Assembly: GCA_038845975.1 (NCBI GenBank)
Contig: JAWBQF010000042.1
Span: 1 to 17,965 of the forward strand
Length of the DNA: 17,965 bases
Direction of reading: 5' to 3'
Source: Candidatus Methanomethylicia archaeon
Lineage (GTDB): Archaea > Thermoproteota > Methanomethylicia > CALHIW01
In this document: one piece after another, positions 1,587 to 17,719 of the stretch
How positions within the stretch are numbered: position 1 is the stretch's first letter
Layout of the letters: each line of letters begins with the position of its first letter
Made by a program: the position numbers and the translations under genes
Notes under the pieces: generated by a model
What the model saw: the letters and a program-made list of their open reading frames with translations, nothing else
What the model was told of the DNA's origin: nothing
Databases searched by the model: none

Positions 1587-3023
1587 ATGTCAATTATGAG
1601 GATTAGGATTTTAAATCGTGGGGATATTTGTAGAATTGATGTAGCTACAATGGAGGTTCTGGAAAAGATTGGTATAAAGATATTTGAGGATGAGGCTTTA
1701 AGGATTATGAGAAGAATAGGTGTTGAAGTTGGAGATAATAAAACTGTTAGAATACCGGAGTATATTGTAAGAGAAGCTATTAAGAAAGCTCCAAGCTCCT
1801 TCATACTTTTCGGTAGGAAGCATAGATTAAAAATTGAGCCTGGTAATACTTATTTTTCAATGCAGGGTACTAGTATTCATATTCTAGATTTAGAAACAGG
1901 CTTACGTCGAGAACCTACTTTGAGAGACTTAGAGAATTTTTGTAGGCTTGCAGATGCCCTAGAAAATATTCATCACGTATCTATAGCTGTAGAGCCTAAA
2001 GATGTGAAGATAGAGTTACTGCATGTATATGAGTTGCTTACAATGTTTAGGAATACTACGAAGACTATTGATGGAAATACTTATGGAGGAAGAACTGCTA
2101 TGGATACTGTAAGGCTTACTAGTATTGTTGCTGGCGGTATAGAGGAGCTTATGAAGAAACCTATGCTTCTAGGATTTCATAATCCAGTAAGTCCTCTACA
2201 GCACTCTAAAGAGTTAACTGAGGGACTTATTGTCTATGCTAAGTATAGACAGCCAGTTATAATAGCTCCTGAAGCTCAAGCAGGAGCTACAGCACCAGCT
2301 ACCCTTGCAGGACTATTAGTACAGCAGAATGCTGAGGTTTTAAGTGGATTGGTTATAGCTGAGTTTACAAATCCAGGTACTCCAATACTTTATGGAACTG
2401 TTTCAGCCCCCCTAGATATGAGGACAGGTAACATAGCTCTTGGGGCTATAGAAACTGGATTAATAAATGCAGCAACAGCTGAAATAGCAAGCTACTATAA
2501 TCTACCAAGTCGAGGAACCGGAGGAGTAACAGACTCGAAAATACCCGATATACAGGCAGGAATAGAGAAAGCATTAACATTACTCATGGCTGCTATGGCT
2601 GGAATAAACTTCATATATGATGCTTCAGGATCTCTTGAATCTACATTAACAGCAAGCTATGAGCAGGCAGTAATCGACAATGAAATATGCGGTATGGTTA
2701 ATCGTGCCTTATGTGGAATTGAAGTTAATGATGAAACACTTGCTCTAGACGTTATAAGTGAAGTAGGTTCAGGAGGACATTACCTATCAAAAAAGCATAC
2801 TATAAAATACCTTAAGAGAGAATACTATATACCTAAAATAATTGATAGGGATAGAAGAGAGAAGTGGATAAGGATGGGAGGAAGAGATTTATGGAGGACT
2901 GCGCGTGAAGAAGCAATGAGAATACTAGCAGAACATAGACCGGAACCACTAGATAAAGATGTGGAGAATGAACTTGTAAAATTAGTTGGAGAGATGGAGA
3001 AGAAATTGACTAGGAACCATTAA
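1587..3023 (+). CDS. mttB: Trimethylamine methyltransferase (MttB) superfamily protein, non-pyrrolysine type
   Basis: 478 aa with family motifs NPVSPL, AGATAPATLAG, DMRTG, GAIETG, TDSKIPDIQAGIEK, EQAVIDNEI and GSGGHYL. No in-frame TAG; Val314 occupies the Pyl-equivalent position. The start could be 1596. Confidence 0.93.
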   Translation: MSIMRIRILNRGDICRIDVATMEVLEKIGIKIFEDEALRIMRRIGVEVGDNKTVRIPEYIVREAIKKAPSSFILFGRKHRLKIEPGNTYFSMQGTSIHILDLETGLRREPTLRDLENFCRLADALENIHHVSIAVEPKDVKIELLHVYELLTMFRNTTKTIDGNTYGGRTAMDTVRLTSIVAGGIEELMKKPMLLGFHNPVSPLQHSKELTEGLIVYAKYRQPVIIAPEAQAGATAPATLAGLLVQQNAEVLSGLVIAEFTNPGTPILYGTVSAPLDMRTGNIALGAIETGLINAATAEIASYYNLPSRGTGGVTDSKIPDIQAGIEKALTLLMAAMAGINFIYDASGSLESTLTASYEQAVIDNEICGMVNRALCGIEVNDETLALDVISEVGSGGHYLSKKHTIKYLKREYYIPKIIDRDRREKWIRMGGRDLWRTAREEAMRILAEHRPEPLDKDVENELVKLVGEMEKKLTRNH

Positions 3024-3199: not shown

Positions 3200-4507
3200 T
3201 TAAGATTTATTGCTTTGATGTAGTTTTCCTAGTGAGCTTAAACGTTTAATTTCTCCTCTTTCAATAAGTATTCTTACAGTTCTACTACTAATTAATTCCT
3301 CTAATTTATCTATTCTCTCCTTAATCTCCCTAAACTCTACTAGTGGTTGAACTGCTTTACCTATTTCTTGCGGTATTATCTTCCTGATAGGTACTGCTAG
3401 TTTTCTTATCGGGTACTCAATTATTTTAGGCTTATATTTACCTATAAGCTTCATATACATTTCACTATATGATTTGCCCCATGGCTTATTTTCCTCAATA
3501 TTAAATCCAAATCTATTAACTTTAAGAACTTCATATGGGCATGCATTAACACATGCTCCACAATATACACAGTATTCATCAGCAACTTTAATTCTTGATT
3601 CTGAAGGTATTCTCGCAGTATAGAATAGATTTAATGGGCATATGTTGAAGCAATTTTTACAGCCTGATGGATCGCATTTCTCAGGCTTAACAATTCTAAT
3701 CTCTCCTGTAAATGGCTTCTTAGTTTCTATTGCTTTTTGTGGACATTTATCCATGCATAAGCCACACCATATACAGCTATTAACATCTATTTTAACTTCC
3801 CCTTTAACTTTCGGTTTAGCTATTGTTCTTAAAGCTGACTTAAAGCATTTAACTGATATTGCTTCTGTAGGACATATTTCCCTACAGAGTTCACAGTAGT
3901 CACATTTATCTTCATCAATAAATATTCCATTAGCAATTTTAAATTCTGGTGGTGTAGGTTTATCTATCCATTCTATTTTGAATGCATTACATAGTATTTC
4001 ACATAATCCACAGTATATGCATTTATCTATGTCAATTCTTATTTCTCCACTAGCCCATATCTCCCCATCATATTTTACAAGATCCTCCTTTCGAGGAATC
4101 TCAATTTCTACCTTTAAAGCTCTTCTCGGACATGTTTTCTCACATATTAAGCATGGTTTACACTTTGACGAATCTATGCTTATTGATCCGCTAATTCTTG
4201 GGGTTTTAAATGTTTCTTCAGTATTAAACTTTAATGCATTAAATATACATACTGATGCGCCGACTGGACATACAATACATTTAGTTTCATCAATAATTAT
4301 CTGTGGAGCTTCAAGCTTCTTTGCTGCTATATCTCTTATTGGACCCAATGTTATTGCTTCAACTGGACATACAATACTACATAATCCACATCCAACACAT
4401 CTATCCATACTGAATTTTATGTTTTTTGTAAGCATTGTATATTTTGAAGTGTATGTTAACGTACTATTTACTATCTCGACATTTACTTGCGGCTTTTCAA
4501 TACTCAA
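3200..4507 (-). CDS. fwdF: Polyferredoxin, FwdF/FmdF-like (8 ferredoxin-type [4Fe-4S] motifs)
   Basis: Six CxxCxxCxxxC motifs, one CDPSGCxxCxxxCP variant and one degenerate CxxCxxGxxxC. The TTG start overlaps the hdrA TGA (TTGA), with an AGGTGA SD at 4515-4520. It has a C-terminal charged, probably helical extension. Confidence 0.82.
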   Translation of the reverse strand: MSIEKPQVNVEIVNSTLTYTSKYTMLTKNIKFSMDRCVGCGLCSIVCPVEAITLGPIRDIAAKKLEAPQIIIDETKCIVCPVGASVCIFNALKFNTEETFKTPRISGSISIDSSKCKPCLICEKTCPRRALKVEIEIPRKEDLVKYDGEIWASGEIRIDIDKCIYCGLCEILCNAFKIEWIDKPTPPEFKIANGIFIDEDKCDYCELCREICPTEAISVKCFKSALRTIAKPKVKGEVKIDVNSCIWCGLCMDKCPQKAIETKKPFTGEIRIVKPEKCDPSGCKNCFNICPLNLFYTARIPSESRIKVADEYCVYCGACVNACPYEVLKVNRFGFNIEENKPWGKSYSEMYMKLIGKYKPKIIEYPIRKLAVPIRKIIPQEIGKAVQPLVEFREIKERIDKLEELISSRTVRILIERGEIKRLSSLGKLHQSNKS

Positions 4508-6864
4508 TGAGTTGTCACCTTTACAAGTTCGCTTCCAATAGGTCCTACTTTACTAATTCTATCTACGAAGTCTGTAATGATTTTAGCTAGCTTACCCCCC
4601 TCAGAAGCACTTACACCCGTTATTTCAACTCTACCTGGATTAACTTCATATTTCTCCAATAATTCCTTTAATGACTTTATTCTCCTATTGGCTTTAACTC
4701 TACCTGTTCTATAGTGGCAGTCCTGTTCTCTACATCCAATAATTAGAACTCCATCAGCTCCCATTTTAAGAGCCCAAACTACATGTTTAGGACTAACTCT
4801 ACCTGAACATTCAACTCTAACTACTCTAATATTTGTTGGATATGGTATCTTGTTAATTCCCGCATTATCTGCAGCTGCATAGCCACACCATCTACATAGG
4901 AATCCTATAATTAATGGATAGTCCTTTTTCTCCTTAAATACTGCTTTAAGCATTAAGTATATTTGTTCATCAGTTGGTTTTTTAGGCGATTTTATTGCTC
5001 CTACTGGACATGCAGCTATACATACACCACACCCAGTACATGCAGTTTCATTAACTAATACTTCTTTAGATATTAGTTTTAAGGCTTTATAGTCGCATGC
5101 TTGTACACATAACCCACATTTTAAGCATTTATCCTTATCTACTTCAGGTGCAATAACCTCCACTTCTACTTCACCAGAATGTAGGAATTGAGCTGCTTTA
5201 CTTGCTGCTAATCCTGCTTGAAGAGTAGATTCAGTAATGTCTTTAGGTCCACTGCATGCCCCAGCTAGATATATACCGCTTCTAAAAGTATCTGATGGTT
5301 TGAGTTTGGGATGATACTCTGTAAAGAAGCCATATTCATCTAGCTGTAATCCAAGCATGTTTGCAAGCCTTCTATTATCTGGATCTGGATCCATACCTAT
5401 ACTTAAAACTACTAGGTCGAATAGTTCTCTCTCTACTTTTCCCTCTAGAGTATCCTCATAGGTAAGTTTTAGCTTTCCGGATTTATCTCTCTCTACACTA
5501 CTTATCCTTCCCCTCACAAATTTTACTCCTGCTTCAAGTGCTCTTCTATATGCTTCTTCATGCATTTTACCTGAAGCTCTAATATCAGTATAGAAGACTG
5601 TTATATCTATTTCTGGATTAATTATTTTTGTTTCAAGAGCATGCTTTATCGTATACATACAGCATATCTTACTACAGTATGGTCTACCTAGTCTTTCACT
5701 TCTACTACCTACACATAGTATGAATGCTATTTTCCTTACTTCACCACTATCTGATGGCTTAACTATTCTACCTTTTGTAGGTCCATTACAGTTAAGCATT
5801 CTATCATATTCGGCTCCTGTAATAACATCTAGGAATCTTCCATAGCCATACTCCTCGATTTCTCTTGGATTATATGGTTTAAATCCTGTTGCAACAATTA
5901 TTGCTCCTACACTTAAGGTTATTTCTCTATCTATATCTTTAAAGTTTACTGCCTTAGGATCGCATACTCCAATACAATTCATACATCCAATACAATTTTC
6001 AATATCAATATATGGTGCAACAGGTACTGTTTGAGGTTCTGGTTTAACTATGGCCTTTCTCATATTTACTCCATATTCATACTCATTCGGGAGCTCTACT
6101 GGGCAAACTTCTAAACACTTATTACATCCATTACATGCTGTTTCATCTATATATCTTGCTTTCCTTCTAATCTTCACCACATAGTCTCCAGGTACTCCTG
6201 AAACATCAACTACTTCACTTAAAGTATATATTTTAATGTTTGGATGATTGTAGGCTTGAGAGAGTAACGGCCCAAGAATACATATGCTACAGTCTAGCGT
6301 TGGAAATACTTTATCCCATTTAGCCATATGACCACCTAGAAAACCAGATTTTTCAACTAGGAATACCTTAATACCAGTATCTGCTAGATTTAATGCTGCA
6401 TTAATACCTGCTACACCACCACCTATAATAAGAACTGATCTTTCAGTAGGTCTTCTAATAATATTGATTGGTTTAGCTTCTCTAACAGCTTCTAAAGCCA
6501 TTAATATATGGTCTAAAGCTTTTAATGTAGCTTTACCTGGATTATACCAGTGAACCCAACTAGCCTGCTCCCTAATGTTTGCTATTTCAATAAATCCTCT
6601 ATTCAAACCATATTTTTCAGCGTTTTTCTTGAAGAGTTCTTCGTGAAGACTCGGAGTACATGCAGCTATAACAATTCTTGAAGTTCCATCCTTAGCTATT
6701 ATCTCCCCCATTTTCTTTAGTCCATCCTCACTACACCAATGCTCATTATCATATACTAGAATATCTCCATATATCCTCTTAACATCATTTTTAAGCTTTT
6801 CAATATCTATAACGCCTTTAATATTTGTACCGCAATGACAGATTAAACATGCAGTTCTATTCAT
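4504..6864 (-). CDS. hdrA: Heterodisulfide reductase subunit A fused to a C-terminal MvhD ([2Fe-2S]) domain
   Basis: CHCGTNI, AACTP, GGGVAG FAD motif, KVFPTLDCSICI, inserted 2x[4Fe-4S], CVGSR...CSKICC, GPKDI and C-terminal 2x[4Fe-4S]. MvhD motifs follow: FLCRWCGYAAAD, CSGRV, GCREQDCHY. AGGTGG SD at 6869-6874. Confidence 0.95.
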   Translation of the reverse strand: MNRTACLICHCGTNIKGVIDIEKLKNDVKRIYGDILVYDNEHWCSEDGLKKMGEIIAKDGTSRIVIAACTPSLHEELFKKNAEKYGLNRGFIEIANIREQASWVHWYNPGKATLKALDHILMALEAVREAKPINIIRRPTERSVLIIGGGVAGINAALNLADTGIKVFLVEKSGFLGGHMAKWDKVFPTLDCSICILGPLLSQAYNHPNIKIYTLSEVVDVSGVPGDYVVKIRRKARYIDETACNGCNKCLEVCPVELPNEYEYGVNMRKAIVKPEPQTVPVAPYIDIENCIGCMNCIGVCDPKAVNFKDIDREITLSVGAIIVATGFKPYNPREIEEYGYGRFLDVITGAEYDRMLNCNGPTKGRIVKPSDSGEVRKIAFILCVGSRSERLGRPYCSKICCMYTIKHALETKIINPEIDITVFYTDIRASGKMHEEAYRRALEAGVKFVRGRISSVERDKSGKLKLTYEDTLEGKVERELFDLVVLSIGMDPDPDNRRLANMLGLQLDEYGFFTEYHPKLKPSDTFRSGIYLAGACSGPKDITESTLQAGLAASKAAQFLHSGEVEVEVIAPEVDKDKCLKCGLCVQACDYKALKLISKEVLVNETACTGCGVCIAACPVGAIKSPKKPTDEQIYLMLKAVFKEKKDYPLIIGFLCRWCGYAAADNAGINKIPYPTNIRVVRVECSGRVSPKHVVWALKMGADGVLIIGCREQDCHYRTGRVKANRRIKSLKELLEKYEVNPGRVEITGVSASEGGKLAKIITDFVDRISKVGPIGSELVKVTTH

Positions 6865-6872
6865 TCAACCAC

Positions 6873-8156
6873 CTACAAGTATTCTAGTAGCTTCCTAAGA
6901 AATTCCTCCTCATGAATAGTGTTTTCTCTTTCATCTATGATTTTCTCTAGCTTAGTAGGTACACCGTCCGAGCGTATAACTTCCCCACTAGCTTCAACTC
7001 CTAGAATCGATAATGGAACCCTTATTTGGCTTCTACTTGAAGCTACTGTTTCTCTATAATCTAATATTATTGTTTTACTAAACGGTATTTTTCTTGAAGC
7101 ACTTAACGGTAGATGTGTTGTAGGATCTGTTTTAACAAGGAGAACTGCATCAAAATCCCCTCTTAAAAGTCCTCCGTAAGCACTTGTAGAAACAGGATTA
7201 TATTCAATACTTCCATTACTAAACTTTAATGCATGACTATACTTATAGAGTTTATATGGGATCTGCGCTGCCCCCATTGAGTTGATTCTTTCAGCTATTG
7301 GAGTTAATGTAATTCTTTTACTAGCTCCTATTTTTCTTAGAATGTTTACAATTGAAAGTATTGTATCGTTAACATTACCGTTAAGTATTAAGCCGTGACC
7401 TATGAAGAATGCAATATATCTTGCCCTTTTAATATCATTGATTAGAGATGAGGCTGCTCCTGTGTACCTACTAGTCTTTAACGGTTTTCCATCATATATT
7501 CTATCTAAACTCTCAGTAAATTCAACATCTCCACCTAAATCGATTTTTATTTGGTGTTGAGCGATCTTCATAGTCCAGCTATTCCTAACATCTACTACAG
7601 CAACAATTCTATTTTCTCTTCCAAGTGGAACACTATTTCCTCTAGGCATTACTGAATATCTGCTTGCATGTCTTAGATTAGTTTCAGCTGGGTTTGCAGC
7701 CCAGAAAACAATCATGTCTGCATTATCCAATACATCTTCAAAAACACCTAACTCAATATCTCCACTGGCTATTAAGGGCATTAATGGCTGACATATACTT
7801 GGAGGCGTATCAAATATTCCATTAACCTTCTCTGCAACTTTTAATCCAAGCTCTATAGCTTTATTGGAACATTCATCAAACCCATATATTAAAGGTTTAC
7901 TAGATGATGAAAGAATTTCAGCAGATTTCCTAACAGTTTCTTCAAGATCTACGTTTTTCAACCCAATAGTGAAACCTCTTAACCTACTATCCATGCTATA
8001 TGTTTTAATTGCTTGATAGCCATGACTACATGCCCCCTCAACAACCCTTACTTCTCCATTACTGATTTTAACAACTAAGTCATTACATAATAAGGAGCAT
8101 CCTGGACAAACAACTTCTTCTAAAACAGTGTTCTCTAAATAGCTTTTTAAGGACAT
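6873..8156 (-). CDS. fwdB: Formylmethanofuran dehydrogenase subunit B-like Mo/W-bisPGD family protein, divergent active site
   Basis: Colinear with FwdB: VVCPGCSLLCND...AC [4Fe-4S] motif, KPLIYG, ADMIVFW..NP....RH.SR, VVDVR, YNP, DP..HLP, GVEASG...R.DGVP. ATG 8156 is preferred over GTG 8162 because a GGTG SD lies upstream. Confidence 0.88.
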   Translation of the reverse strand: MSLKSYLENTVLEEVVCPGCSLLCNDLVVKISNGEVRVVEGACSHGYQAIKTYSMDSRLRGFTIGLKNVDLEETVRKSAEILSSSSKPLIYGFDECSNKAIELGLKVAEKVNGIFDTPPSICQPLMPLIASGDIELGVFEDVLDNADMIVFWAANPAETNLRHASRYSVMPRGNSVPLGRENRIVAVVDVRNSWTMKIAQHQIKIDLGGDVEFTESLDRIYDGKPLKTSRYTGAASSLINDIKRARYIAFFIGHGLILNGNVNDTILSIVNILRKIGASKRITLTPIAERINSMGAAQIPYKLYKYSHALKFSNGSIEYNPVSTSAYGGLLRGDFDAVLLVKTDPTTHLPLSASRKIPFSKTIILDYRETVASSRSQIRVPLSILGVEASGEVIRSDGVPTKLEKIIDERENTIHEEEFLRKLLEYL

Positions 8157-8342
8157 ATACACACCAATTATAAAACTTAACTAATATATTTTTCCAACAC
8201 TATCAATATAACGCTGTTTAGCTAATATTTAAACCTTATGATGTTAAATAGTAATTCAACTACATATATAAAGCATATACAGATATTAGGGGAAGTTAAT
8301 TTAGACGGATTCAATAATATATGTTAGCTAAGCGAACCACTA

Positions 8343-8393
8343 TACTAGTCTAGACTTTACATGTTAGATAGATTTATATAGTATAGACTAGTA
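8343..8393 (+). promoter_or_regulatory. Nitroreductase TATA box (TTTATATA, 8373-8380) bracketed by a 13/14-bp inverted repeat
   Basis: The TATA ends 22 nt before ATG 8402. TACTAGTCTAGACT (8343-8356) pairs with AGTATAGACTAGTA (8380-8393). Confidence 0.5.
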
Positions 8394-8401
8394 AACCTGA
8401 T

Positions 8402-8917
8402 ATGGATATTTTAGAGCTTATTAAGAGTAGGAGGAGTATAAGGAGGTATATGGAGAAAGCAGTTCCTAGCGAACTAGTTAGGAAGATATTAGAGGCTGGT
8501 AGATGGGCTCCATCAGCAAATAATAGCCAGCCATGGAGTTTTATAGTATTAAAAAGTGAAGAAGTAAGGAGAAGAGTTGCAGAAGCTACAACATATGGAA
8601 GATTCTTAGCAAATGCTCCTATCGGAATAGCTGTTGTTATTGATCCTGAGCTATCAAGACATGCAGTAGAAGATGGAGCTATTGCAACTATGAATATGCT
8701 TCTTGAAGCTCATGCTTTAGGTCTTGGTGCCTGCTGGATAGGAGCATACAATTCACCTTACGAGGAGAAGATTAAGGAAATACTTAAAATCCCAAAGAAT
8801 AAAAGAATACTATCTATAGTTTCTATAGGTTACCCAGCAGAATCGCCATCAAAAAATCGTAAAGAATTAGATGAAATTGTATTTATTGACAACTATGGAA
8901 ATAAAGAAAAACTCTAA
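8402..8917 (+). CDS. Nitroreductase-family FMN-dependent oxidoreductase
   Basis: RRSIRRY, APSANNSQPWSF, DGAIATMNMLLEAHALGLGACWIG and SIGYP are standard family motifs; 171 aa. Confidence 0.93.
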   Translation: MDILELIKSRRSIRRYMEKAVPSELVRKILEAGRWAPSANNSQPWSFIVLKSEEVRRRVAEATTYGRFLANAPIGIAVVIDPELSRHAVEDGAIATMNMLLEAHALGLGACWIGAYNSPYEEKIKEILKIPKNKRILSIVSIGYPAESPSKNRKELDEIVFIDNYGNKEKL

Positions 8918-9070
8918 TTTGAGAAGCTAGCTGGAAGTAGTGAATATTAAGACTGCTTAACTGCATTATAAGTATAAAATAATGGTTCTGTCCGGATAAG
9001 ATATAGGTTGAGAATAGGTTTAATCTTTTCTTGTTTTTGTTTTTTCCTAAAGTATTGTTGCTATTCTTAT

Positions 9071-9179
9071 GAGCTCATTGCAAAACTCCAAATTTAAGCA
9101 TGTTAACAATCTTTTACAATACTATTCTCATGTAGAATTAAACTGTTAAACCTTAGTAGTAGAGTTTTGCAATGACTTC
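9071..9179. mobile_element. 109-bp MITE-like element nested in the IS6 3' region (IS5-type ends)
   Basis: Ends GAGCTCATTGCAAAACTC (9071-9088) and revcomp GAAGTCATTGCAAAACTC (9162-9179) match 16/18, inner 14 bp perfect. TAT flanks both sides (9068-9070, 9180-9182). No coding capacity. Confidence 0.7.
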
Positions 9180-9256
9180 TATCTTAAAAAGTTTAATATT
9201 TTAGTCATCTCTTGCTTTTTAAAATTTAATGTTAAATATGATGATATGATAATAAG

Positions 9257-9929
9257 TTATCTCTTGCTTTCCTTGCCTAGAAAGTCGTAGTAGAACTTAA
9301 GGCTCTTAGAAGCTGTTAGATTCCTTAAAGCTAGGCTTTGTTCACTCCCACTTAGCTTTCTAAGGGTATTTCTTAAGTTAACGTTGATGTTATGGAGGAA
9401 TATGCCTGTACGATGCTTCAGGTAGGCAAAAACCCTTTCCACCAAGCTTCTTCTCCATGTTTTGATGCTCCTGCTCTAATCCTAGCTGCTCAACCCCTTC
9501 CTCAAGCCAACCCGCCCTATCCCTTATTATTCTCGGCTTGTTAGGCATTTATTAAGACTTTTGAAGGAAAGCCTAGTTGCTAAAGAACTCCTAGCAGGTC
9601 CTTATCTCTACAAGCTCCTAGTATCAACATCTATGGCAACATAAACCCAAACTTCCCGCCCTTAAGCTTGAGGCAATCTTCATCTATAGCTATGGCTTCT
9701 TTGGCTTCCCCCATTCTTTAGCTTCCAAAATAGCCCTGAACTTCAAGCACCACTCGTTTAGATTTACTGGCAAATTCCCTCCAAAGCTCAAGAAGCCTAG
9801 AAGCTTTCCACAAGAGCTCAGTATCAACCATAATAGAAAAGCCTTCACCTTCAGCTCAATCGGCTTTCTATTTCCTTTAAAGATATTTAAGCTCCCAGCC
9901 CAATCTATTAACTGGGCTGGAATCTCCAT
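9257..9929 (-). pseudogene. Frameshifted IS6 DDE transposase
   Basis: MEIPAQL...FKGNRKPIELKVKA / AIAIDEDCLKLKGGK / VWVYVAIDVDTR / NKPRIIRDRAGWLEE...LGLE / RRSLVERVFAYLKHRT are spread over several frames. ORFs 9690..9950 and 9257..9445 are pieces of it. Confidence 0.88.
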
Positions 9930-10039
9930 AATATTAATTACCCAGCCCAACTTTTATCCGGACAGAACCAAAATAATTAGGGAAAAATAGTAAATTAGAG
10001 TAGAATTTATTATGGAGGCTTCTATAGAACTGGATGAGT

Positions 10040-10429
10040 TTAATCACTACTAAGAAGTTCTTGTAGTTTAGTAGTAGTTTTAGATGTTGGCTTAATAGAT
10101 ACCATTACACGTCCATATATTGGAAAGCCTTCCTGACCCATGAATGGTGGGAGTAAAGACATGCTCCATGGACTCATAGGCATAACAGCAACATCATCCT
10201 CAAGGCTTTCATCAGCTTTAACCCTAACAACAACGGAGTTGAAAAGCGATGATACCTCCACGTTATCGCCGTTTTTTATACCCATCTCAACCATGGAAGA
10301 TTTAGAAATGGAAACTATAGCTACACTATTAGCATACTCACTATTTAAACTACCCATCTTAGACATTAACTCCGAATTATGAGTTCTTGTAATAACAAGC
10401 TTAAACTGTCTAGACACATGAGAAGACAT
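10040..10429 (-). CDS. fwdD: FwdD-like molybdopterin-dinucleotide-binding subunit, divergent
   Basis: 129 aa; LVITRT, EY...VA, M..MGIKNGDNVEVSS, VVVR and MPMSPW match the FwdD double-psi barrel pattern. Confidence 0.8.
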   Translation of the reverse strand: MSSHVSRQFKLVITRTHNSELMSKMGSLNSEYANSVAIVSISKSSMVEMGIKNGDNVEVSSLFNSVVVRVKADESLEDDVAVMPMSPWSMSLLPPFMGQEGFPIYGRVMVSIKPTSKTTTKLQELLSSD

Positions 10430-10713
10430 AGTAGATAAATATAAAGGTATCTATATATTTACGATTCTGTAAACTTTAGATGTGAAGTATATGTAGTTTG
10501 TGATAGGTTAATAAGAAATATTTGACTTAATTACTAATTAATTAGGTTGCTTTCAATACATTTAAACCATAATTCTCACTGAATTAATGTTTAACTAGTT
10601 ATACATTATCTATACATCATTAGATATGCTTATATGAAAGATTTAAATACTATTAAACACTGTTATATTGATGATTCAAGTAAAAGATATAAGCTTAGTC
10701 TAGTTGATGCATT

Positions 10714-11175
10714 ATGCTTGAAAACAAGAATAAGAAACTAATTCAATATTACGTATTAAAGTGTTTTCAGTGTGGAGTATGTACAGGTTCATGTCCAGTA
10801 TCATCTATTACACCGTTTAATCCAAGAAGGATAGCGTATAAAATAGTTAGAGGAATAGGAGGAATTGATGAGATATGGTATTGTCTTATATGTCATATAT
10901 GTGAAGCAAGATGTCCAAGCCTTATAGAATTCACTAAAGTAGTAACTAAGCTTAGAGAGGAAAGCATTAGGGCAAGAAGAGATATATTAAATACCTACAG
11001 GGAAATGCTAAAACAGTTTTTAGATAGTGGATTAGTAATTAAGCCTATAAGTAATGAAGTTGAAGTCTACCGTGAAAAGCTAAAACAAGACCTAGATAAG
11101 GAGGGATTTCATAGAGTATTAAGAGAAATATTTATGAAGACAGGATTTCAAGGGGTTGGAATTGACGAGGATTAA
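10714..11175 (+). CDS. hdrC: Heterodisulfide reductase subunit C (2x[4Fe-4S])
   Basis: CFQCGVCTGSCP...FNPRRI...IWYCLICHICEARCP; overlaps hdrB. Confidence 0.88.
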   Translation: MLENKNKKLIQYYVLKCFQCGVCTGSCPVSSITPFNPRRIAYKIVRGIGGIDEIWYCLICHICEARCPSLIEFTKVVTKLREESIRARRDILNTYREMLKQFLDSGLVIKPISNEVEVYREKLKQDLDKEGFHRVLREIFMKTGFQGVGIDED

Positions 11176-12049
11176 TGATGTCCCAAATAGTGAAGAACCA
11201 TTATACTACTATCCAGGATGTCTTTCACTAAATATGTATCCAGGTATTGCATACTCAACATTAAAAGTTCTTGAAATGCTAGGTTATAAGGTATTTTTAG
11301 GAGAGGAGATATGTTGTAGCTTAACATTTAAGAATGTAGGGTTAATGCCTCCTGAAACTGTATATTCTATCAATGCCTTTATAATGTCGAAGACATATTT
11401 AAAATCTAGATTTATTGTAACATCATGTAATGGATGCTACTCAAACTTAAACGATACATTAAAGAAACTAGAAGATGAAGGTTTTAGAAGGCTTATTGAC
11501 GAGTTGAATATGACAATACCCCAGGGTATTAAGATTATACATGTAGCTGAAGTAATATACAAGCAAATAGAAGAAATAGCTAGGATAGGGGAGAGAAATC
11601 TTAAAGGATTAAGAGTAGCAGTCCATTATGGATGTGATTATACGTATGCTCATCCAGATCTAGTTATTGATAGTGTTGAGTATCCAAGATTCCTCGATGA
11701 CTTTATTGAAAGATTCGGAGGTGAACCTATTGAATACGATGAGAAGCAAACATGCTGTGGCCAACCAGCAATTAAGGGGGTGGGAGATATAACTATGGAG
11801 CTAGCTAAGAGGAAAATACTAAGTATAAATAGCGTAGATACGGATATTCTACTTGTAATGTGTCCAGCATGCCTACTAGCATTTGATAGGGTGCAGTATA
11901 GCTTAATAAGCTTAGGGGAGATAAATAGAGTAATACCGGTAATACATGTATCACAGCTAGCAGGATTAATTCTAGGTTTAAACTTTAAAGATCTAGGTTT
12001 AGATCTCCATCTAGTTAAGGAGTTTAATAGGTTTCATGGTTTAAGATAG
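11156..12049 (+). CDS. hdrB: Heterodisulfide reductase subunit B-like protein (two CCG domains)
   Basis: YYPGC, ICC, SCNGC, HYGC, TCCG and MCPAC give ten Cys for two non-cubane clusters; C-terminal PVIHVSQL.GL.LG. The true start may be TTG 11162 (AGGGG at 11151-11155). Confidence 0.9.
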   Translation: MELTRINDVPNSEEPLYYYPGCLSLNMYPGIAYSTLKVLEMLGYKVFLGEEICCSLTFKNVGLMPPETVYSINAFIMSKTYLKSRFIVTSCNGCYSNLNDTLKKLEDEGFRRLIDELNMTIPQGIKIIHVAEVIYKQIEEIARIGERNLKGLRVAVHYGCDYTYAHPDLVIDSVEYPRFLDDFIERFGGEPIEYDEKQTCCGQPAIKGVGDITMELAKRKILSINSVDTDILLVMCPACLLAFDRVQYSLISLGEINRVIPVIHVSQLAGLILGLNFKDLGLDLHLVKEFNRFHGLR

Positions 12050-13189
12050 CTAACTAATTAAAGCTCTAATGAAGCTAGATATAACTAGATGAATTTTTAA
12101 TATTATGCTTCTAGGTATGGATTCATGATTATCAAAATCTAAATCTCTACCAATAGCTTCTAGCAAGTTGGATTGACTAATTATACTAAATGCTTTATCC
12201 ATTGTTTTCGGCGTATTAACCAGCAGATTTAAAAGCTTAACTAATACTCTTTGCCTTCTAAGCTTCATTACTAAATCTAAATTAAGCTTAGCATATCTTA
12301 CTCCAATATTATTTACATCGCTACATTCATTAAAAGCCTTAGTAAGAGCATCTACAGATTTTAAACCAGTTAGTAGACCTCCACCAGTTAATGGTTTTAC
12401 CTGAATAGCAGAATCACCAATATATAGTAGTCTACCAAGATAGGGGGTTTTTAAGACAGGACCTCTAAGTATCCATCCACCGAAAACTCTTAAAACTCTA
12501 TATTTACCGATTTGTTTTGAAATTATTGGATGCTTACTTAAAACATAAATAAGCCTAGTGTAAGGCTTCCTACTAGATCCTAATCCAACTCTTACAATTC
12601 CATCTCCTAGAGGAAGAAGCCATATGAAGAATTTAGGAGTTAATTTAGAGAAGAACACTTGTATAGTATCTAAATCAACATTACTTAGTCTACATTCTAA
12701 ATCCATCTGGATACCTGGAACCCTATCAACATATGGATTTAATGTTTTACCCAGTATCCTATGTGAAGCTCCTTCAGCATTAATTACTAAATCGTAGCTT
12801 TTAATTATACCATTAACTTCAATAGATGCCTTTCTGTAGTTTACAGCATTAACCCTTACACCTAAACAGCAATATTCATAACATCTATCATAGAGTTCAC
12901 AATCAAAACCAACTCTATCAATAACTCCTACAAACCATGAATTATCATGTAGAGTTACCGATATGTTACTGGGTGAATACAGTTTTATTCTATTAAACCT
13001 ATTTAGAATATGCTTACTACCTACATATCTCTCAATAAAGCTCCTACTAACTACACCAGCACAATGTTGAGGTATACCAATAGACTTATGTTCTTCATAT
13101 ACTGTAACACTATGACCTAAACTAGAAAGCTTTTTCGCAATACTTAAACCAATAGGTCCAGCACCTATAATTGCTATTTTCATCCACAT
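12050..13189 (-). CDS. Geranylgeranyl-reductase-family FAD-dependent oxidoreductase
   Basis: IIGAGPIG, PQHCAG, IDRVGFD, INAEG, FIWLLP, VRVGL and IGDSAIQVKPLTGGG. Probable start is ATG 13183. Confidence 0.85.
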   Translation of the reverse strand: MWMKIAIIGAGPIGLSIAKKLSSLGHSVTVYEEHKSIGIPQHCAGVVSRSFIERYVGSKHILNRFNRIKLYSPSNISVTLHDNSWFVGVIDRVGFDCELYDRCYEYCCLGVRVNAVNYRKASIEVNGIIKSYDLVINAEGASHRILGKTLNPYVDRVPGIQMDLECRLSNVDLDTIQVFFSKLTPKFFIWLLPLGDGIVRVGLGSSRKPYTRLIYVLSKHPIISKQIGKYRVLRVFGGWILRGPVLKTPYLGRLLYIGDSAIQVKPLTGGGLLTGLKSVDALTKAFNECSDVNNIGVRYAKLNLDLVMKLRRQRVLVKLLNLLVNTPKTMDKAFSIISQSNLLEAIGRDLDFDNHESIPRSIILKIHLVISSFIRALIS

Positions 13190-13293: not shown

Positions 13294-14259
13294 TTAATAT
13301 AGATGACATGCAACAAAATGCTTTGAGCATACTTCCCTTAAAGTAGGCTCATTTAGATTACATTTACCATCAATTATCTTAGGACATCTAGGATGAAATC
13401 TACATCCTGTAGGTGGATTAATTGGGCTTGGAGGCTCTCCTGGAACAATAGGTCTCTCCCTAAACCTATTTTCAGGGTCAGGATCAGGTATAGCATTTAT
13501 TAGGGCAACTGTATATGGATGAAGAGGATTTTTTAAAACTTCTCTTATTGAGCCATACTCAACAATCTTTCCAAGGTACATAACACCAATATTATGTGAG
13601 AAGTATTTAGCTGTAGCTATGTCATGAGTTATATACATCATTCCAATACCATACTTTTCCTGAAGCTCTCTAAATAGTAACAGTATTTCAGCCCTACTGG
13701 AAGCATCAATCATTGATACAGGTTCATCGGCAACTATAAAGCTTGGATTTAAAACTAGAGCTCTTGCAATACATACTCTTTGCCTCTGTCCACCTGAAAG
13801 CATATGTGGAAACTTTAAAATAAACTCTTCAGGGGGAGAAAGCCTTACATTACTTAATGTTTTTAAAATAATTTCTCTACGTTCAGAAACATCTTTAACT
13901 CCATGTATTATTAGAGGTTCTTCAAGTATTTGCTTAATCGTCATGTATGGATTTAGAGATGAAAACGGATCCTGAAATATTATTTGAGCTTCCTTCCTAA
14001 TCCATCTAATATCTCCCTTAATATTCGTTATGTCACTACCTTTAAAAACTATTTTACCTGATGTAGGCTCTATAAGCTTAACAGCTGTACGTCCAAGTGT
14101 AGTTTTTCCACTACCAGACTCACCAACTATTGCTACTATTTCACCTTTAGATATAGTCATAGATACACCATCAACAGCTTTAACAGTTAACGTTTTAAAG
14201 AAGCCTTTACGAACACTAAAATATGTTTTAATATCTACTAGTTTAAGTATAGGCTCCAT
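13294..14259 (-). CDS. dppF: Oligopeptide/dipeptide ABC transporter ATP-binding protein
   Basis: GESGSGKT, LSGGQRQR, ADEP, HPYT and a C-terminal GCRFHPRC...C...C domain. Confidence 0.93.
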   Translation of the reverse strand: MEPILKLVDIKTYFSVRKGFFKTLTVKAVDGVSMTISKGEIVAIVGESGSGKTTLGRTAVKLIEPTSGKIVFKGSDITNIKGDIRWIRKEAQIIFQDPFSSLNPYMTIKQILEEPLIIHGVKDVSERREIILKTLSNVRLSPPEEFILKFPHMLSGGQRQRVCIARALVLNPSFIVADEPVSMIDASSRAEILLLFRELQEKYGIGMMYITHDIATAKYFSHNIGVMYLGKIVEYGSIREVLKNPLHPYTVALINAIPDPDPENRFRERPIVPGEPPSPINPPTGCRFHPRCPKIIDGKCNLNEPTLREVCSKHFVACHLY

Positions 14260-14265
14260 AAATCA

Positions 14266-15213
14266 TCACTTGTAAAGCCAACACTTAACAAAGCTACCGT
14301 TTACTAGTATACTTTGAGGATTTTCCCTATAGCATTTATCCATTACGTATGGACATCTAGGATGAAATCTACATCCAGATGGAGGAGCTACAAGATCTGG
14401 AGGAGCTCCAGGTATGAATTCAGGTGTTTTATCACTGTGTAGTCTAGGAATACTGCTAAGTAGTTTTTGAGTATATGGATGCTTAGGAGATAGAAGCACC
14501 TTCTCAGCACTACCAAGCTCTACAAGCTCTCCAGCATACATAACTCCAAAATCATCACATATATCGCTTGCTAAAGCTATATCGTGAGTTATGAAGATCA
14601 TTGAAATACCAAGTTTTCTCTTAAGGCTTTTAAGTAAATTCATTATTTGAGCTTGAATGCTTACATCAAGCGCTGATGTAGGCTCATCTAGAATTAATAT
14701 ATCTGGATTTAGTGTTAAAGCCATAGCTATAATAGCTCTCTGCTTCATACCTCCGCTAAGCTCATGGGGATACCTATTAACAATATCAGGAGGTAAACCT
14801 ACAAGCCTAAAAAGCTCCTCAACAATTTTTAAAGCTTCCTCTTTTCTTAAACCCTTATGGATAATAAGAGGTTCAGCAACTTGAAAACCAACTTTAAGAA
14901 CAGGATTTAGGGAATTCATAGCACCTTGAAAAACCATTGATATTCTCCTCCATCTAATCTTAGATCTAAACTCAGCCTCATTAAGAATCGTTAAATCCAT
15001 ATCTTCAAGATATATCTTACCCTCATATCTTGAAACATTTCTTGGAAGATTTCTAACTATAGCATTAGCTGTACTTGACTTACCACATCCAGATTCACCT
15101 ACAATTCCTAGAGTTTTACCCTTATCTAAGCTAAGAGATACACCATCAACAGCTTTAACATCCCCTCTTAAAGTTTTAAAGTAAAGTCTTAAACCACTTA
15201 CTTCAAGAAGCAT
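14266..15213 (-). CDS. dppD: Oligopeptide/dipeptide ABC transporter ATP-binding protein
   Basis: GESGCGKS, YPHELSGGMKQR, LDEPTSALD and GCRFHPRC. Confidence 0.93.
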   Translation of the reverse strand: MLLEVSGLRLYFKTLRGDVKAVDGVSLSLDKGKTLGIVGESGCGKSSTANAIVRNLPRNVSRYEGKIYLEDMDLTILNEAEFRSKIRWRRISMVFQGAMNSLNPVLKVGFQVAEPLIIHKGLRKEEALKIVEELFRLVGLPPDIVNRYPHELSGGMKQRAIIAMALTLNPDILILDEPTSALDVSIQAQIMNLLKSLKRKLGISMIFITHDIALASDICDDFGVMYAGELVELGSAEKVLLSPKHPYTQKLLSSIPRLHSDKTPEFIPGAPPDLVAPPSGCRFHPRCPYVMDKCYRENPQSILVNGSFVKCWLYK

Positions 15214-16653
15214 TTACTTCCACCTTCTCAGTCTAGGATTAACTACAGGTTCCATACCTAATGCTATAAATACGAAGGTAATTGCTGAATATACAATAAA
15301 CAAGCCGGGTGGAAGAATCCACCACCAATAACCTAGAAATACAGCACCATTTTTAAATCCATACTCTAATATTTGGCCCCATGTAGGCATAGTAACATCT
15401 CCAAGGCCTAGAAAGCTTAAAGCAGCTTCAGCTAGTATTGCGTAGGGAGTGAAGAAGATCATTTGAGCAAATACAAATGGTGCAACCTGCGGAAAAATAT
15501 GTTTAACCATTACTCTCAATCTAGATGCTCCAATAGCTACCGCAGCCTCAATAAACTGGGATGTCTTAGCTGAGAGAACCATAGATCTAACAATTATAGT
15601 TAGGCTTGGCCAGTTAAAGAATACAAGTACAAGTATGATTAGCCAAAGCTTACCACCAAATATAAATGATAACAATATGAGAAGAGGGAGAAGAGGAATA
15701 TTATTTATAGTATCTGCGAAACGCTGAATAAAATCATCAATTCGCCCACCAATATATCCACTTATAATTCCTAAACCAGCACCAATAACTGTTGTAAGTA
15801 GCGAGGTGCCAATACCAATGATTAACGCTACAGGAAAACCGAATAGTAAGCCTTGAGATAAATCACGTCCCAAAACATCAGTTCCCATTAAGCCATAAAC
15901 ATAACCACCTAAAACAACATTAACCATACCAATATTATCATTAACATCACTACATACCAATACAGTGCTAAAAACATATCTACCAGTTAATGGAGTAAAA
16001 GTATTTTTTCCACTAATATATCCGAAGATAATCCTTTCATTTCCAATCTCAAGAATACTACTAATTCCTAAGGATATGTTAAACTCCCTATACAGAAAAC
16101 CTATAAGAGACCTTGCTAAATACATATCTCCGCTTAAAAGTATCCTTTTAGGCTCTATTGAGAAGTATTTAAATGGGGGTATTACATTATTTGATGGTGT
16201 TTCAATAGCTAGAGTATATAGCTCTACAGTTTTTCCATCAGGTCTAGTTACATAAAACCTTACAATAGGCGGTGAATCCCTATTATGGAATAATAAATTA
16301 CTGATTCTTAACGTTATAAACTTTGGAAACTGATTATATTCATGGTTATAGCTTACATTATAGTATTTAATAAACCGGTTATTGTAGGTTTTAATTCCGG
16401 AAGCCTTACTTACTGAGAGCTCTGCATGGCTCATAAGCTTTTCAGAAAGGAAAATATTAATCCATTCAGGCTGAGCAGTTTTAGGATAATCAACCCAATA
16501 TAGAGGATTATACCAGTATCGAACCCCAAAATCTAAGGGTAGAGTAACTACAGTATAAATAGATACTATAACTAAAACCGTAAGAAATAGAATACCGATT
16601 TTCGATATATTACTAGCCCAGAACTCACTAAAAGACTCTCTAATAAAGCTCAT
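15214..16653 (-). CDS. dppC: Peptide ABC transporter permease with a large extracytoplasmic insert
   Basis: GTDVLGRD, FIEAAVAIGAS (EAA loop), HIFP, LSFLGLG and GYWWW..PPG, with a ~200-aa hydrophilic insert after TM1. Confidence 0.92.
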   Translation of the reverse strand: MSFIRESFSEFWASNISKIGILFLTVLVIVSIYTVVTLPLDFGVRYWYNPLYWVDYPKTAQPEWINIFLSEKLMSHAELSVSKASGIKTYNNRFIKYYNVSYNHEYNQFPKFITLRISNLLFHNRDSPPIVRFYVTRPDGKTVELYTLAIETPSNNVIPPFKYFSIEPKRILLSGDMYLARSLIGFLYREFNISLGISSILEIGNERIIFGYISGKNTFTPLTGRYVFSTVLVCSDVNDNIGMVNVVLGGYVYGLMGTDVLGRDLSQGLLFGFPVALIIGIGTSLLTTVIGAGLGIISGYIGGRIDDFIQRFADTINNIPLLPLLILLSFIFGGKLWLIILVLVFFNWPSLTIIVRSMVLSAKTSQFIEAAVAIGASRLRVMVKHIFPQVAPFVFAQMIFFTPYAILAEAALSFLGLGDVTMPTWGQILEYGFKNGAVFLGYWWWILPPGLFIVYSAITFVFIALGMEPVVNPRLRRWK

Positions 16654-17699
16654 TAAAGCCTCACCCTAGGATCAAGAACTACATAAAGGATTTCAAGTAT
16701 GAATCTAGCTAAAACATATATGAGTGTAAATATGTATGTTAAAGCAAGTATTAGAGATTCATCAACAGACATTACAGCCTTATAATATAGAGTCCCCATA
16801 CCAGGCCAGTCGAACACGATTTCAGTTAAAATAGCTCCTGCAATAGAGCCTGCAAGACCCAATACAATATTAGTTAGTATTGGTGGAGCAGCAACCCTAA
16901 CAATATATCTTCTCCTAACTAAATCTTCGGGAAGACCCTTAACCCTAGCAACATTTACAAAATCCTCCTGGGCAACTGATAAGACAATACTTCTCGTTAT
17001 GTAAATCCATGAGCCTGATAGGGCTAAAACAAGAGTAATTAGGGGAAGCATTACATGCCAGAGAAGATCTAGAAAACGCATGAATGGATCTTCATGTGGA
17101 GGAGCACTATACATGCCGCCGAAAGGGAAAATTCTTAATTGAAAGGAGAAAAACAATATCATTAACATACCAAGCCACCATGTAGGTAGAGCATAGGAGA
17201 TAGCTGAATATAGTGAAGTAGCTCTATCTATCCTTGTACCATGTTTTAAAGCAACTCTTGGACCAATAAGGAGGCCTAGGATAAAGTTAATGATTAAGGC
17301 TGAAGTCATTAAAAGTATTGTGTTTGGAATTCTTTCAATAATTATGTCTGAAATTTTATTACTACCAGTAAATGTTTGAACCTCTCTTGCAGACCCTAAA
17401 TCTAAAGTTACAATTCTTAAAATCATATTTGGAATTCTAGCATACCAAGGCTTATCTAAACCATAAGCCTTAACTAAATCCTGCCTTATCCTTTCTATAG
17501 CTTTATTAAGCTCTTCAGGATCCCTAATTTGGGTAGTAAGCTTCTGCCTTATACCTCTAAGCTCCTCATTCATTATTGAGTTAAGAATTCTATCTGATAG
17601 TCCTGATGCACCAATTATTAAAACAGTAAATAGTAGAACACTAATAAGTACAATTATTAATGTTAACCCCTTTAAAGCTAAAGTCTTCCCCAACCCCAT
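16653..17699 (-). CDS. dppB: Peptide ABC transporter permease
   Basis: YGLDKPW, DLG, RIPNT, DFVNVARVKGL, TEIVFDWPGMG and LDPRVR. ATG 17699 is preferred because AGGTG at 17706-17710 fits an SD. Confidence 0.92.
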   Translation of the reverse strand: MGLGKTLALKGLTLIIVLISVLLFTVLIIGASGLSDRILNSIMNEELRGIRQKLTTQIRDPEELNKAIERIRQDLVKAYGLDKPWYARIPNMILRIVTLDLGSAREVQTFTGSNKISDIIIERIPNTILLMTSALIINFILGLLIGPRVALKHGTRIDRATSLYSAISYALPTWWLGMLMILFFSFQLRIFPFGGMYSAPPHEDPFMRFLDLLWHVMLPLITLVLALSGSWIYITRSIVLSVAQEDFVNVARVKGLPEDLVRRRYIVRVAAPPILTNIVLGLAGSIAGAILTEIVFDWPGMGTLYYKAVMSVDESLILALTYIFTLIYVLARFILEILYVVLDPRVRL

Positions 17700-17719
17700 A
17701 AAAAACACCTATTATCATT

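Follow-up and report, generated by a model that had tools for sequence, protein, structure and literature searches.

The whole of contig JAWBQF010000042.1 (C42) from a Candidatus Methanomethylicia archaeon, 17,965 bp long, was analyzed and is referred to below as the window. It belongs to a 2.77 Mb genome of 76 contigs, 93% complete. Genes were identified from open reading frames (ORFs) and from family scans with Pfam and with NCBIfam/TIGRFAM models carrying curated cut-offs. An earlier note on this DNA had described a cluster encoding FwdB-, FwdD- and FwdF-like proteins together with HdrA fused to MvhD, HdrB and HdrC. The present analysis indicates that a Fwd-Hdr module conserved among archaea is present here in rearranged form. 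All six genes were recovered where the earlier note had placed them, and neither the ORFs nor the family scans revealed a fwdA, fwdC, hydrogenase or Fdh gene in the window.

Three of the genes follow each other on the reverse strand. The FwdB-like gene (6873-8162, 427-429 aa, more likely starting at the ATG at 8156) scored 285.3 bits against TIGR03129, for a cut-off of 327.8, and had no Pfam match. The gene for HdrA fused to MvhD (4504-6864, 786 aa, HdrA2 type) scored 990.2 bits against NF040770 (cut-off 1100); the match spans model positions 3-777 of 777, and PF02662 was found at residues 652-774. The FwdF-like polyferredoxin (3200-4507, 435 aa) scored 249 bits against NF042909 (cut-off 375) and aligned to 5t5i_F over residues 30-348 (E=2.6e-51). 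The FwdD-like gene (10040-10429, 129 aa) is also on the reverse strand; its product matched PF01568 at 45 bits and NF042908 at 57 bits (cut-off 175), and its family profile matched 5t5i_D in the PDB (E=1.6e-15). On the forward strand lie the genes for an HdrC-like protein (10714-11175, 153 aa; TIGR03290 at 74.9 bits for a cut-off of 160) and an HdrB-like protein (11156-12049, 297 aa; PF02754 in two stretches, TIGR03288 at 158.6 bits for a cut-off of 345). Apart from HdrA, every Fwd/Hdr-like protein of the window fell well below the curated NCBIfam cut-offs. Reading frames were intact across the cluster. The tight coupling of fwdB, hdrA/mvhD and fwdF was confirmed: 8 nt separate the fwdB stop from the hdrA ATG (GGTGG upstream), hdrA and fwdF share 4 nt (TTGA, preceded by AGGTGA), and both junctions carry a GGTG resembling a Shine-Dalgarno sequence.

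The Hdr subunits retained their cofactor motifs. Residues 6-645 of HdrA aligned to 8rvu_a (E=4.5e-184) with every cysteine motif and the flavin fold matched, and the MvhD part aligned with 5odc_D (E=6.8e-34). HdrA::MvhD is the predicted flavin-based bifurcating subunit. The HdrB-like protein has two complete CCG motifs, its ten cysteines all aligning with those of 8rvv_B, and the HdrC-like protein contains both CxxCxxCxxxCP ferredoxin motifs. The earlier note had FwdB, FwdD, HdrA and HdrB all deviating at signature positions. This holds for FwdB, where His119 and Arg288 are replaced (see below), but not for HdrA, and HdrB keeps all of its CCG cysteines.

The FwdF-like protein carries eight ferredoxin-type cysteine motifs, seven of them complete. 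Motif 2 has three cysteines; in an 18-sequence alignment its third cysteine was replaced by glycine (C83 to G) in the window genus only, and the motif could be a three-cysteine or [3Fe-4S] site. Another cysteine, Cys221, lies outside the eight motifs and is invariant in all 18 aligned family members. The protein ends in a cysteine-free tail of about 110 aa, conserved in the family. In the predicted model (mean predicted local distance difference test score, pLDDT, 84.8), a flexible proline-rich linker (356-389) precedes three helices within 390-432, and in that model the tail looks like a docking piece.

The FwdB-like protein aligned over its full length to solved FwdB chains (HMMER, E ~1e-48 to 1e-52). 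Its AlphaFold model (pLDDT 84.4) superposed on 5T5M_B with a template modeling (TM) score of 0.89; the next fold matches were NuoG (TM ~0.71) and FhcB (TM 0.67). The four cysteines of the [4Fe-4S] motif (C19, C22, C26 and C45) are invariant in the clade. A review lists the cysteine ligand, His119 and His290 among the metal-site residues and describes loss of the D subunit in pterin-less FhcB; Cys118 is also named in a second paper. In the canonical numbering of 5t5i_B, the tungsten/molybdenum (W/Mo) ligand Cys118 is kept in the window protein as C124. His119, a histidine in 13 of 13 canonical sequences, is replaced by glutamine (Q125). Arg288 and Gly289 are replaced by alanine (A290) and glutamate (E291), and His290 by arginine (R292), a position held by Arg or Lys across the window genus. 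We take Arg288 to be the conserved catalytic arginine of formate dehydrogenases, essential in those enzymes. Arginine occupied this column in none of the 27 assessable FwdB-like proteins linked to HdrA, compared with 13 of 13 canonical sequences, and the fused FwdDB of the same genome also has Arg.

The altered site is itself conserved. In the window clade, Ala-Glu (A290, E291) is invariant and S295 invariant or nearly so; the cysteine ligand is present in 37 of 38 rows, and the residue after it varies with the subclade (Gln, His, Arg or Lys). In the Nezhaarchaeales-type clade, Arg comes directly after the cysteine. Across the HdrA-linked proteins, the cysteine ligand is kept in 23 of 27 and the four Fe-S cysteines in all. 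The clade retains 28 of the 70 near-invariant canonical columns, and 125-127 and 290-295 are among the altered ones. It is monophyletic (22 of 22 leaves, Shimodaira-Hasegawa-like support 0.93). These alignments suggest that the pterin site was rebuilt and then conserved rather than left to random decay. Indeed, since pterin-site residues were remodeled and re-fixed while the Fe-S ligands were kept, repurposing fits better than decay, as the earlier note had proposed. Moreover, because the arginine is replaced throughout the clade and the window protein has Gln in place of His119, the pterin unit most probably does not work as a standard CO2/formate catalyst.

Two further features of FwdB-family proteins were observed. 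Residues 161-183 of the window protein (window ~7614-7682) form the part richest in clade-invariant residues (T161, L163, R164, S167, Y169, P173-G175, G181-E183) and the only internal part with pLDDT below 50; the model suggests that this segment may become ordered only with a partner or cofactor. Separately, Asgard FwdB genes adjoining fwdA (loci L105, L107 and L113-L120) retain the cysteine ligand, with Gln at the position of His119 and Gly at that of Arg288. These apparently canonical Asgard enzymes may be Fhc-like rather than CO2 reductases.

The window genes are second, divergent fwdB/fwdD paralogs. A canonical operon was found on contig C5, with ftr, fwdDB (a 576-aa fusion, 550 bits), fwdA (778 bits), fwdC and mch, so the window does not hold the only fwdBD of the genome. 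Neither fwdF nor fwdG belongs to this operon, and only one of each is present in the genome. The earlier note described the complex as lacking FwdG. This description had to be revised: an ortholog of a 155-aa FwdG2-like protein, 59-64% identical, is encoded alone at C11:4529-4996, and related loci have this gene directly upstream of fwdB-like (see below). No mcrA was found in the 93% complete genome, no protein matched PF00374 for the [NiFe] large subunit, and no F420-type FdhA scored above cut-off. The genome does encode an FdnGHI-like membrane enzyme (on C7), Mer, carbon monoxide dehydrogenase/acetyl-CoA synthase (CODH/ACS), an FrhB-like gene and one Nuo/Fpo-like complex. Neither a formate transporter of the FocA/FdhC type nor DsrC was found in this genome. 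The search for ComA gave no match in it, and the Methanosarcina acetivorans control was likewise unmatched. Three GcvH genes are present and, by analogy with what has been suggested for Culexarchaeia, hint at a lipoyl-protein disulfide, which is only a lead. A second hdrC-hdrB-hdrA set was observed at C2:7712-10407 (L002), with a short 426-aa HdrA devoid of terminal domains, near an acyl-CoA dehydrogenase gene.

The cluster was then compared with those of other archaea. A divergent FwdB-like paralog was found in 15 of 62 genomes of the class (36-88% identity, one copy being partial); 14 of these 15 also have canonical FwdDB, and 3 have mcrA. In the 13 class-level loci, the usual order is fwdB-like, hdrA::mvhD and fwdF-like, with fwdD-like on the other strand, followed by hdrC and hdrB. 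All six genes are contiguous in eight loci, five genes in one and four in three (without hdrCB), while the last locus lies at a contig edge. Adding a profile search of named genomes to the class-level loci and removing duplicates gave 28 distinct HdrA-linked loci, labeled Methanomethylicia, Nezhaarchaeales, Culexmicrobium, Bathyarchaeia, Thermoproteota, Baldrarchaeota, Thorarchaeota and, in one case, Methanosarcina. The fwdG2-like gene stands directly upstream of fwdB-like in 25 of the 28. Its product is a 155-aa Fe-S protein with a PF04060 domain and a two-cluster ferredoxin part matching FwdG in the PDB. The module thus comprises seven genes: fwdG2-like, fwdB-like, hdrA::mvhD, fwdF-like, fwdD-like, hdrC-like and hdrB-like. 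FwdC is adjacent in none of the 28 loci and an FwdA-like gene in one, and CODH/ACS subunit genes adjoin the module in eight.

Trees of FwdB-like, HdrA and FwdF-like proteins recovered the same major groups, and this congruence indicates that the module genes were inherited together. Ratios of nonsynonymous to synonymous substitution rates (dN/dS), calculated against the same-genus ortholog, were 0.19 for FwdB-like, 0.11 for HdrA, 0.25 for FwdF-like, 0.23 for HdrB-like and 0.25 for HdrC-like (C-terminal 79 codons). The module is therefore under purifying selection, and its genes travel together in many archaea using the tetrahydromethanopterin Wood-Ljungdahl pathway. The synteny and dN/dS checks proposed in the earlier note gave a cluster that is conserved and does not evolve neutrally. 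The cluster in a metagenome-assembled genome (MAG) labeled Baldrarchaeota (L044) has the Methanomethylicia-type gene order, and its HdrA is 63% identical to that of the window, the highest value outside the genus; this suggests lateral transfer or a binning problem.

In the window, the ancestral gene order is split. The fwdB-hdrA-fwdF block is inverted relative to the order elsewhere, and two features stand between the halves: a nitroreductase-family gene outside the conserved module (8402-8917, forward strand; PF00881, 1.9e-33), with no match in any of the 13 class-level loci compared with the window proteins, and a non-coding repeat element of 988 bp (8983-9970), located between the nitroreductase gene and fwdD-like. 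The element is bounded by inverted repeats of 28 nt and is present at least 10 times in the genome, at 77-93% identity. Among its small ORFs, only the one of 86 aa was scanned, with no family match. Nested within it at 9075-9175 is an insert of about 100 nt resembling a miniature inverted-repeat transposable element, with perfect 14-nt inverted ends, which also occurs alone many times. Read depth over the element was about 2- to 10-fold above the flanks in four independent runs.

The cluster is flanked by genes for an MttB-family methyltransferase (1587-3023, forward strand) on one side and, on the other, for a geranylgeranyl reductase (12050-13189) and an Opp/Dpp ATP-binding cassette transporter (13294-17708), both on the reverse strand; all three were identified by family scan. 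No tRNA or tandem repeat was found in the window. The earlier note had linked the module to methyl-compound metabolism through the adjacent MttB homolog. This link was not upheld: the adjacency occurs in the window genus only, the genome has 16 MttB paralogs, and in 8 of the 28 loci CODH/ACS genes take the place of such a neighbor. A match to Rfam PYLIS_3, the mttB pyrrolysine insertion sequence (65.6 bits, 2527-2625), lies inside the MttB ORF. This ORF has no in-frame stop and carries a sense codon where UAG would stand; thus, the window protein is a non-pyrrolysine homolog. In a MAG of the same genus (L041/L042, 4293-5427), the MttB ortholog was matched as three separate segments, of which two or more differ in reading frame; this reflects either a pseudogene or assembly errors. 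The first 1586 bases of the window hold no ORF longer than 69 aa, and a repeat of about 600 bp at the contig start (1-600) has at least 24 genomic copies of 86-92% identity. Among named relatives, a MAG labeled Candidatus Methanomethylicia is the nearest, at 87-91% amino-acid identity. Nearly identical DNA, with 0.90-0.95 of the sampled words matched, was found in 9 runs from 5 studies, seven of the nine runs being labeled hot-spring metagenomes.

Each window protein had its best PDB sequence match either in entries of Hdr-Fmd/Fwd supercomplexes or in 5T5I and 8RVU/8RVV. Among the supercomplex entries, 9SW6 and 9SFI are presumably those of the M. marburgensis and M. maripaludis structure papers. 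In these two and in 7BKB from M. hungatei, as far as the available parts of the sources describe them, HdrABC and MvhD are wired through the FmdF/FwdF polyferredoxin and FwdG to FwdB/D. The window cluster differs from them in having neither FwdA/FwdC nor a Mvh, Vhu, Fdh or Elp donor. Furthermore, its MvhD is fused to HdrA, its FwdB has lost His119 and Arg288, and its FwdF has an additional C-terminal tail. In the part consulted of a 2026 structural paper, the authors describe FmdF groups 3-6 of TACK and Asgard archaea as uncharacterized and request structures of Hdr complexes from TACK archaea.

The earlier note had presented the complex as new, but the same cluster is already in print. In the accessible part of a paper on the cultured methanogen Methanonezhaarchaeia strain YNP3N (Sci Adv 2025, PMC12700198), a "Fwd-Hdr complex" is proposed to couple formate oxidation to heterodisulfide and ferredoxin reduction. 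As in the window organism, YNP3N is described there with a second, unfused FwdB/FwdD colocated with HdrABC and FwdF, with no MvhAG/FdhAB attached, and with canonical FwdABCD with fused BD beside Wood-Ljungdahl genes. In contrast to YNP3N, the window organism has no mcrA, encodes FwdG on another contig and has the block inverted and split by a repeat; Gln follows the cysteine ligand in the window and Arg in records labeled Nezhaarchaeales. That part of the paper discusses neither the missing active-site arginine nor a wider distribution. In the main texts covered by our literature search, we found no report of the missing arginine or of a spread of the module beyond Methanonezhaarchaeia, and no description of a FwdB-like/HdrA linkage in Culexarchaeia, Bathyarchaeia or Asgard archaea. 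HdrA2B2C2 and an unknown disulfide do appear in the Culexarchaeia paper, but no word beginning with "Fwd" does.

For Methanosarcina, names for the two halves of the module, fwdG2B2D2 and hdrA-pfd, also date back to 2010, according to the portions of the literature at hand. These sources describe M. acetivorans HdrA2 as an HdrA-MvhD fusion, dependent on F420H2 and ferredoxin, whose operon includes a polyferredoxin of unknown role. The window resembles this system in its HdrA-MvhD fusion with a polyferredoxin gene next to hdrA, and fwdG2B2D2, like the module, is a FwdG/B/D set without A/C. In Methanosarcina, however, the parts are for the most part not linked, and HdrB2C2 acts as a reductase of CoM-S-S-CoB (the coenzyme M-coenzyme B heterodisulfide). 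In one Methanosarcina MAG (L081), the FwdG/B/D set and the hdrA-polyferredoxin part were 2.5 kb apart. A third likeness, drawn from sources seen in part, is to ElpA (8RVU), to the Cys118-less "Molybdop" of hdrA clusters in anaerobic methanotrophic archaea (ANME) and Methanosarcinales, and to FhcB. These are subunits of the formate dehydrogenase (FDH)/FwdB family that lost catalytic residues and stayed in a redox complex or cluster. Unlike them, the window protein keeps the cysteine ligand, the full-length FwdB fold and a D subunit, and it pairs with FwdF/FwdG, not with FdhB.

We propose that the module encodes an HdrA2-type bifurcating complex in which the low-potential branch leads through the polyferredoxin to a remodeled pterin unit, with a disulfide other than the CoM/CoB one at HdrBC, a reading in which our confidence and our doubt are about equal. 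Together, the products would make up a soluble electron-bifurcating complex, flavin-based and of the HdrA2B2C2 type. Its donor at the fused MvhD/FAD would probably be F420H2, by analogy with Methanosarcina HdrA2. In the manner of all three solved supercomplexes, the low-potential HdrA branch would be connected by the polyferredoxin, with the FwdG2-like protein, to the FwdB/D-like unit at its [4Fe-4S] cluster and pterin site. HdrBC-like would pass the high-potential electron to a disulfide, probably not CoM-S-S-CoB in an organism lacking mcrA. The pterin unit may then be a neofunctionalized low-potential redox site or electron relay; judging from the residues at its site, it is likely not a CO2/formate enzyme.

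Several points weigh against this proposal. Complex formation is predicted from the genes alone, and the direction of electron flow is assumed by analogy. The only reading in print takes FwdBD as a formate-oxidizing donor. The pterin-binding loops are partly changed, as far as the alignment indicates, and W/Mo cofactor retention is only putative. The basic residue at the position of M. wolfeii His290 near the metal (Arg or Lys in the window genus), or after the cysteine in the Nezhaarchaeales type, could possibly compensate for the lost arginine. In four lineages (L061 and the Thorarchaeota-type copies L064-L066), the cysteine ligand is gone, which suggests that the protein is purely structural or a relay in them. 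The fwdG2-like gene is not linked to the window cluster. Finally, contigs from all four independent runs break at 9013 and 9944 and none bridges the repeat element. Adjacency of the two cluster halves thus rests on the present MAG contig; the join is plausible, and the functional reading does not depend on it.

A bolder form of the bifurcating-complex proposal is put forward tentatively, with much less confidence. The FwdB/D-like unit would be a neofunctionalized W/Mo-pterin enzyme with a re-fixed cysteine and Ala-Glu...Asn-Ser site in place of His/Arg-Gly-His, and its low-potential reaction would be fed directly by flavin-based bifurcation. The module would be an old and widely shared energy-coupling device of non-methanogenic Wood-Ljungdahl archaea (TACK, Asgard). 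Its disulfide would not be CoM-S-S-CoB, and it would relate to the methanogen Hdr-Fmd supercomplex as a sister rather than a remnant.

The alternative already in print for YNP3N runs in the other direction. Internally produced formate would be oxidized by FwdB/D-like, and the electrons would travel by way of FwdG/FwdF and MvhD to the flavin of HdrA, where bifurcation would send them to a disulfide and ferredoxin. Besides its publication (PMC12700198, known to us in part), this model draws on the close match to the FwdB fold, on the cysteine ligand in 23 of the 27 HdrA-linked proteins, on the D subunit, which pterin-less FhcB has lost, and on the basic residue near the site (R292 in the window genus, Arg after the cysteine in the Nezhaarchaeales type). 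Moreover, the cluster encodes no other donor module. However, Arg288 is replaced in all 27 and His119 is Gln here, and positions 125-127 and 290-295 all differ from the canonical consensus. The missing formate transporter, at 93% completeness, also argues against it, as does the polyferredoxin of the solved supercomplexes, which lies on the low-potential acceptor side in the parts of those sources at hand. We therefore consider the formate model unlikely.

Just as unlikely, in our view, is a non-catalytic module in which FwdB/D-like would serve as an Fe-S scaffold or relay, comparable to NuoG, FhcB, ElpA or "Molybdop", and dock the Hdr-polyferredoxin wire to, for example, canonical FwdDBAC or CODH/ACS. 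The four Fe-S cysteines are indeed the only cofactor ligands present in every HdrA-linked copy, given the four lineages with no cysteine ligand, and NuoG and FhcB are the next fold matches. Pterin-less FDH homologs are known inside Hdr complexes or clusters from partly available sources. The canonical operon without its own fwdF and fwdG, in a genome with one of each, and the CODH/ACS neighbors in 8 of 28 loci would also fit a docking role. Yet the cysteine is present in all but one of the 38 window-clade rows, with a new A-E..N-S motif fixed around it. FwdD-like, whose known role is that of a pterin cap, is retained even where the cysteine is lost, and the fold is far closer to FwdB than to FhcB.

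FwdB/D-like could also be isoenzyme subunits, taking the place of the fused FwdDB on the canonical core of FwdA/C under certain metal conditions, with the Hdr genes as mere neighbors. Exchange of Fmd/Fwd subunits has been reported in Methanothermobacter, where FmdBC can replace FwdBC according to the accessible part of the source, and the paralog coexists with canonical Fwd in 14 of 15 genomes. Nevertheless, we find this improbable: the second sphere of the active site is remodeled, close linkage to hdrA and fwdF is conserved while FwdC and FwdA are almost never adjacent, and the gene trees are congruent. Most improbable of all are decaying paralogs or an assembly artifact with no joint function, despite the multi-copy repeat that splits the cluster and is bridged by no independent contig, the unlinked fwdG2-like gene and the cysteine lost from FwdF-like, since the frames are intact with dN/dS of 0.11-0.25, a near-identical stretch occurs in 9 runs of 5 studies, and the same genes are contiguous in other lineages.

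Altogether, the module was already known as a kind, and is seen here in an organism in which no mcrA was found and across TACK and Asgard lineages. The uniform loss of the arginine is a sharp objection to the only published functional proposal, formate oxidation, and, judged from the aligned proteins, weakens that reading. Hdr-Fmd supercomplexes are central to energy coupling in methanogens. The FmdF-type polyferredoxins of TACK and Asgard archaea have their genomic home in this module, and most of the genomes that carry it yielded no mcrA (12 of the 15 in the class). Thus, the module bears on the role of HdrABC outside methanogenesis and on the disulfide used there.

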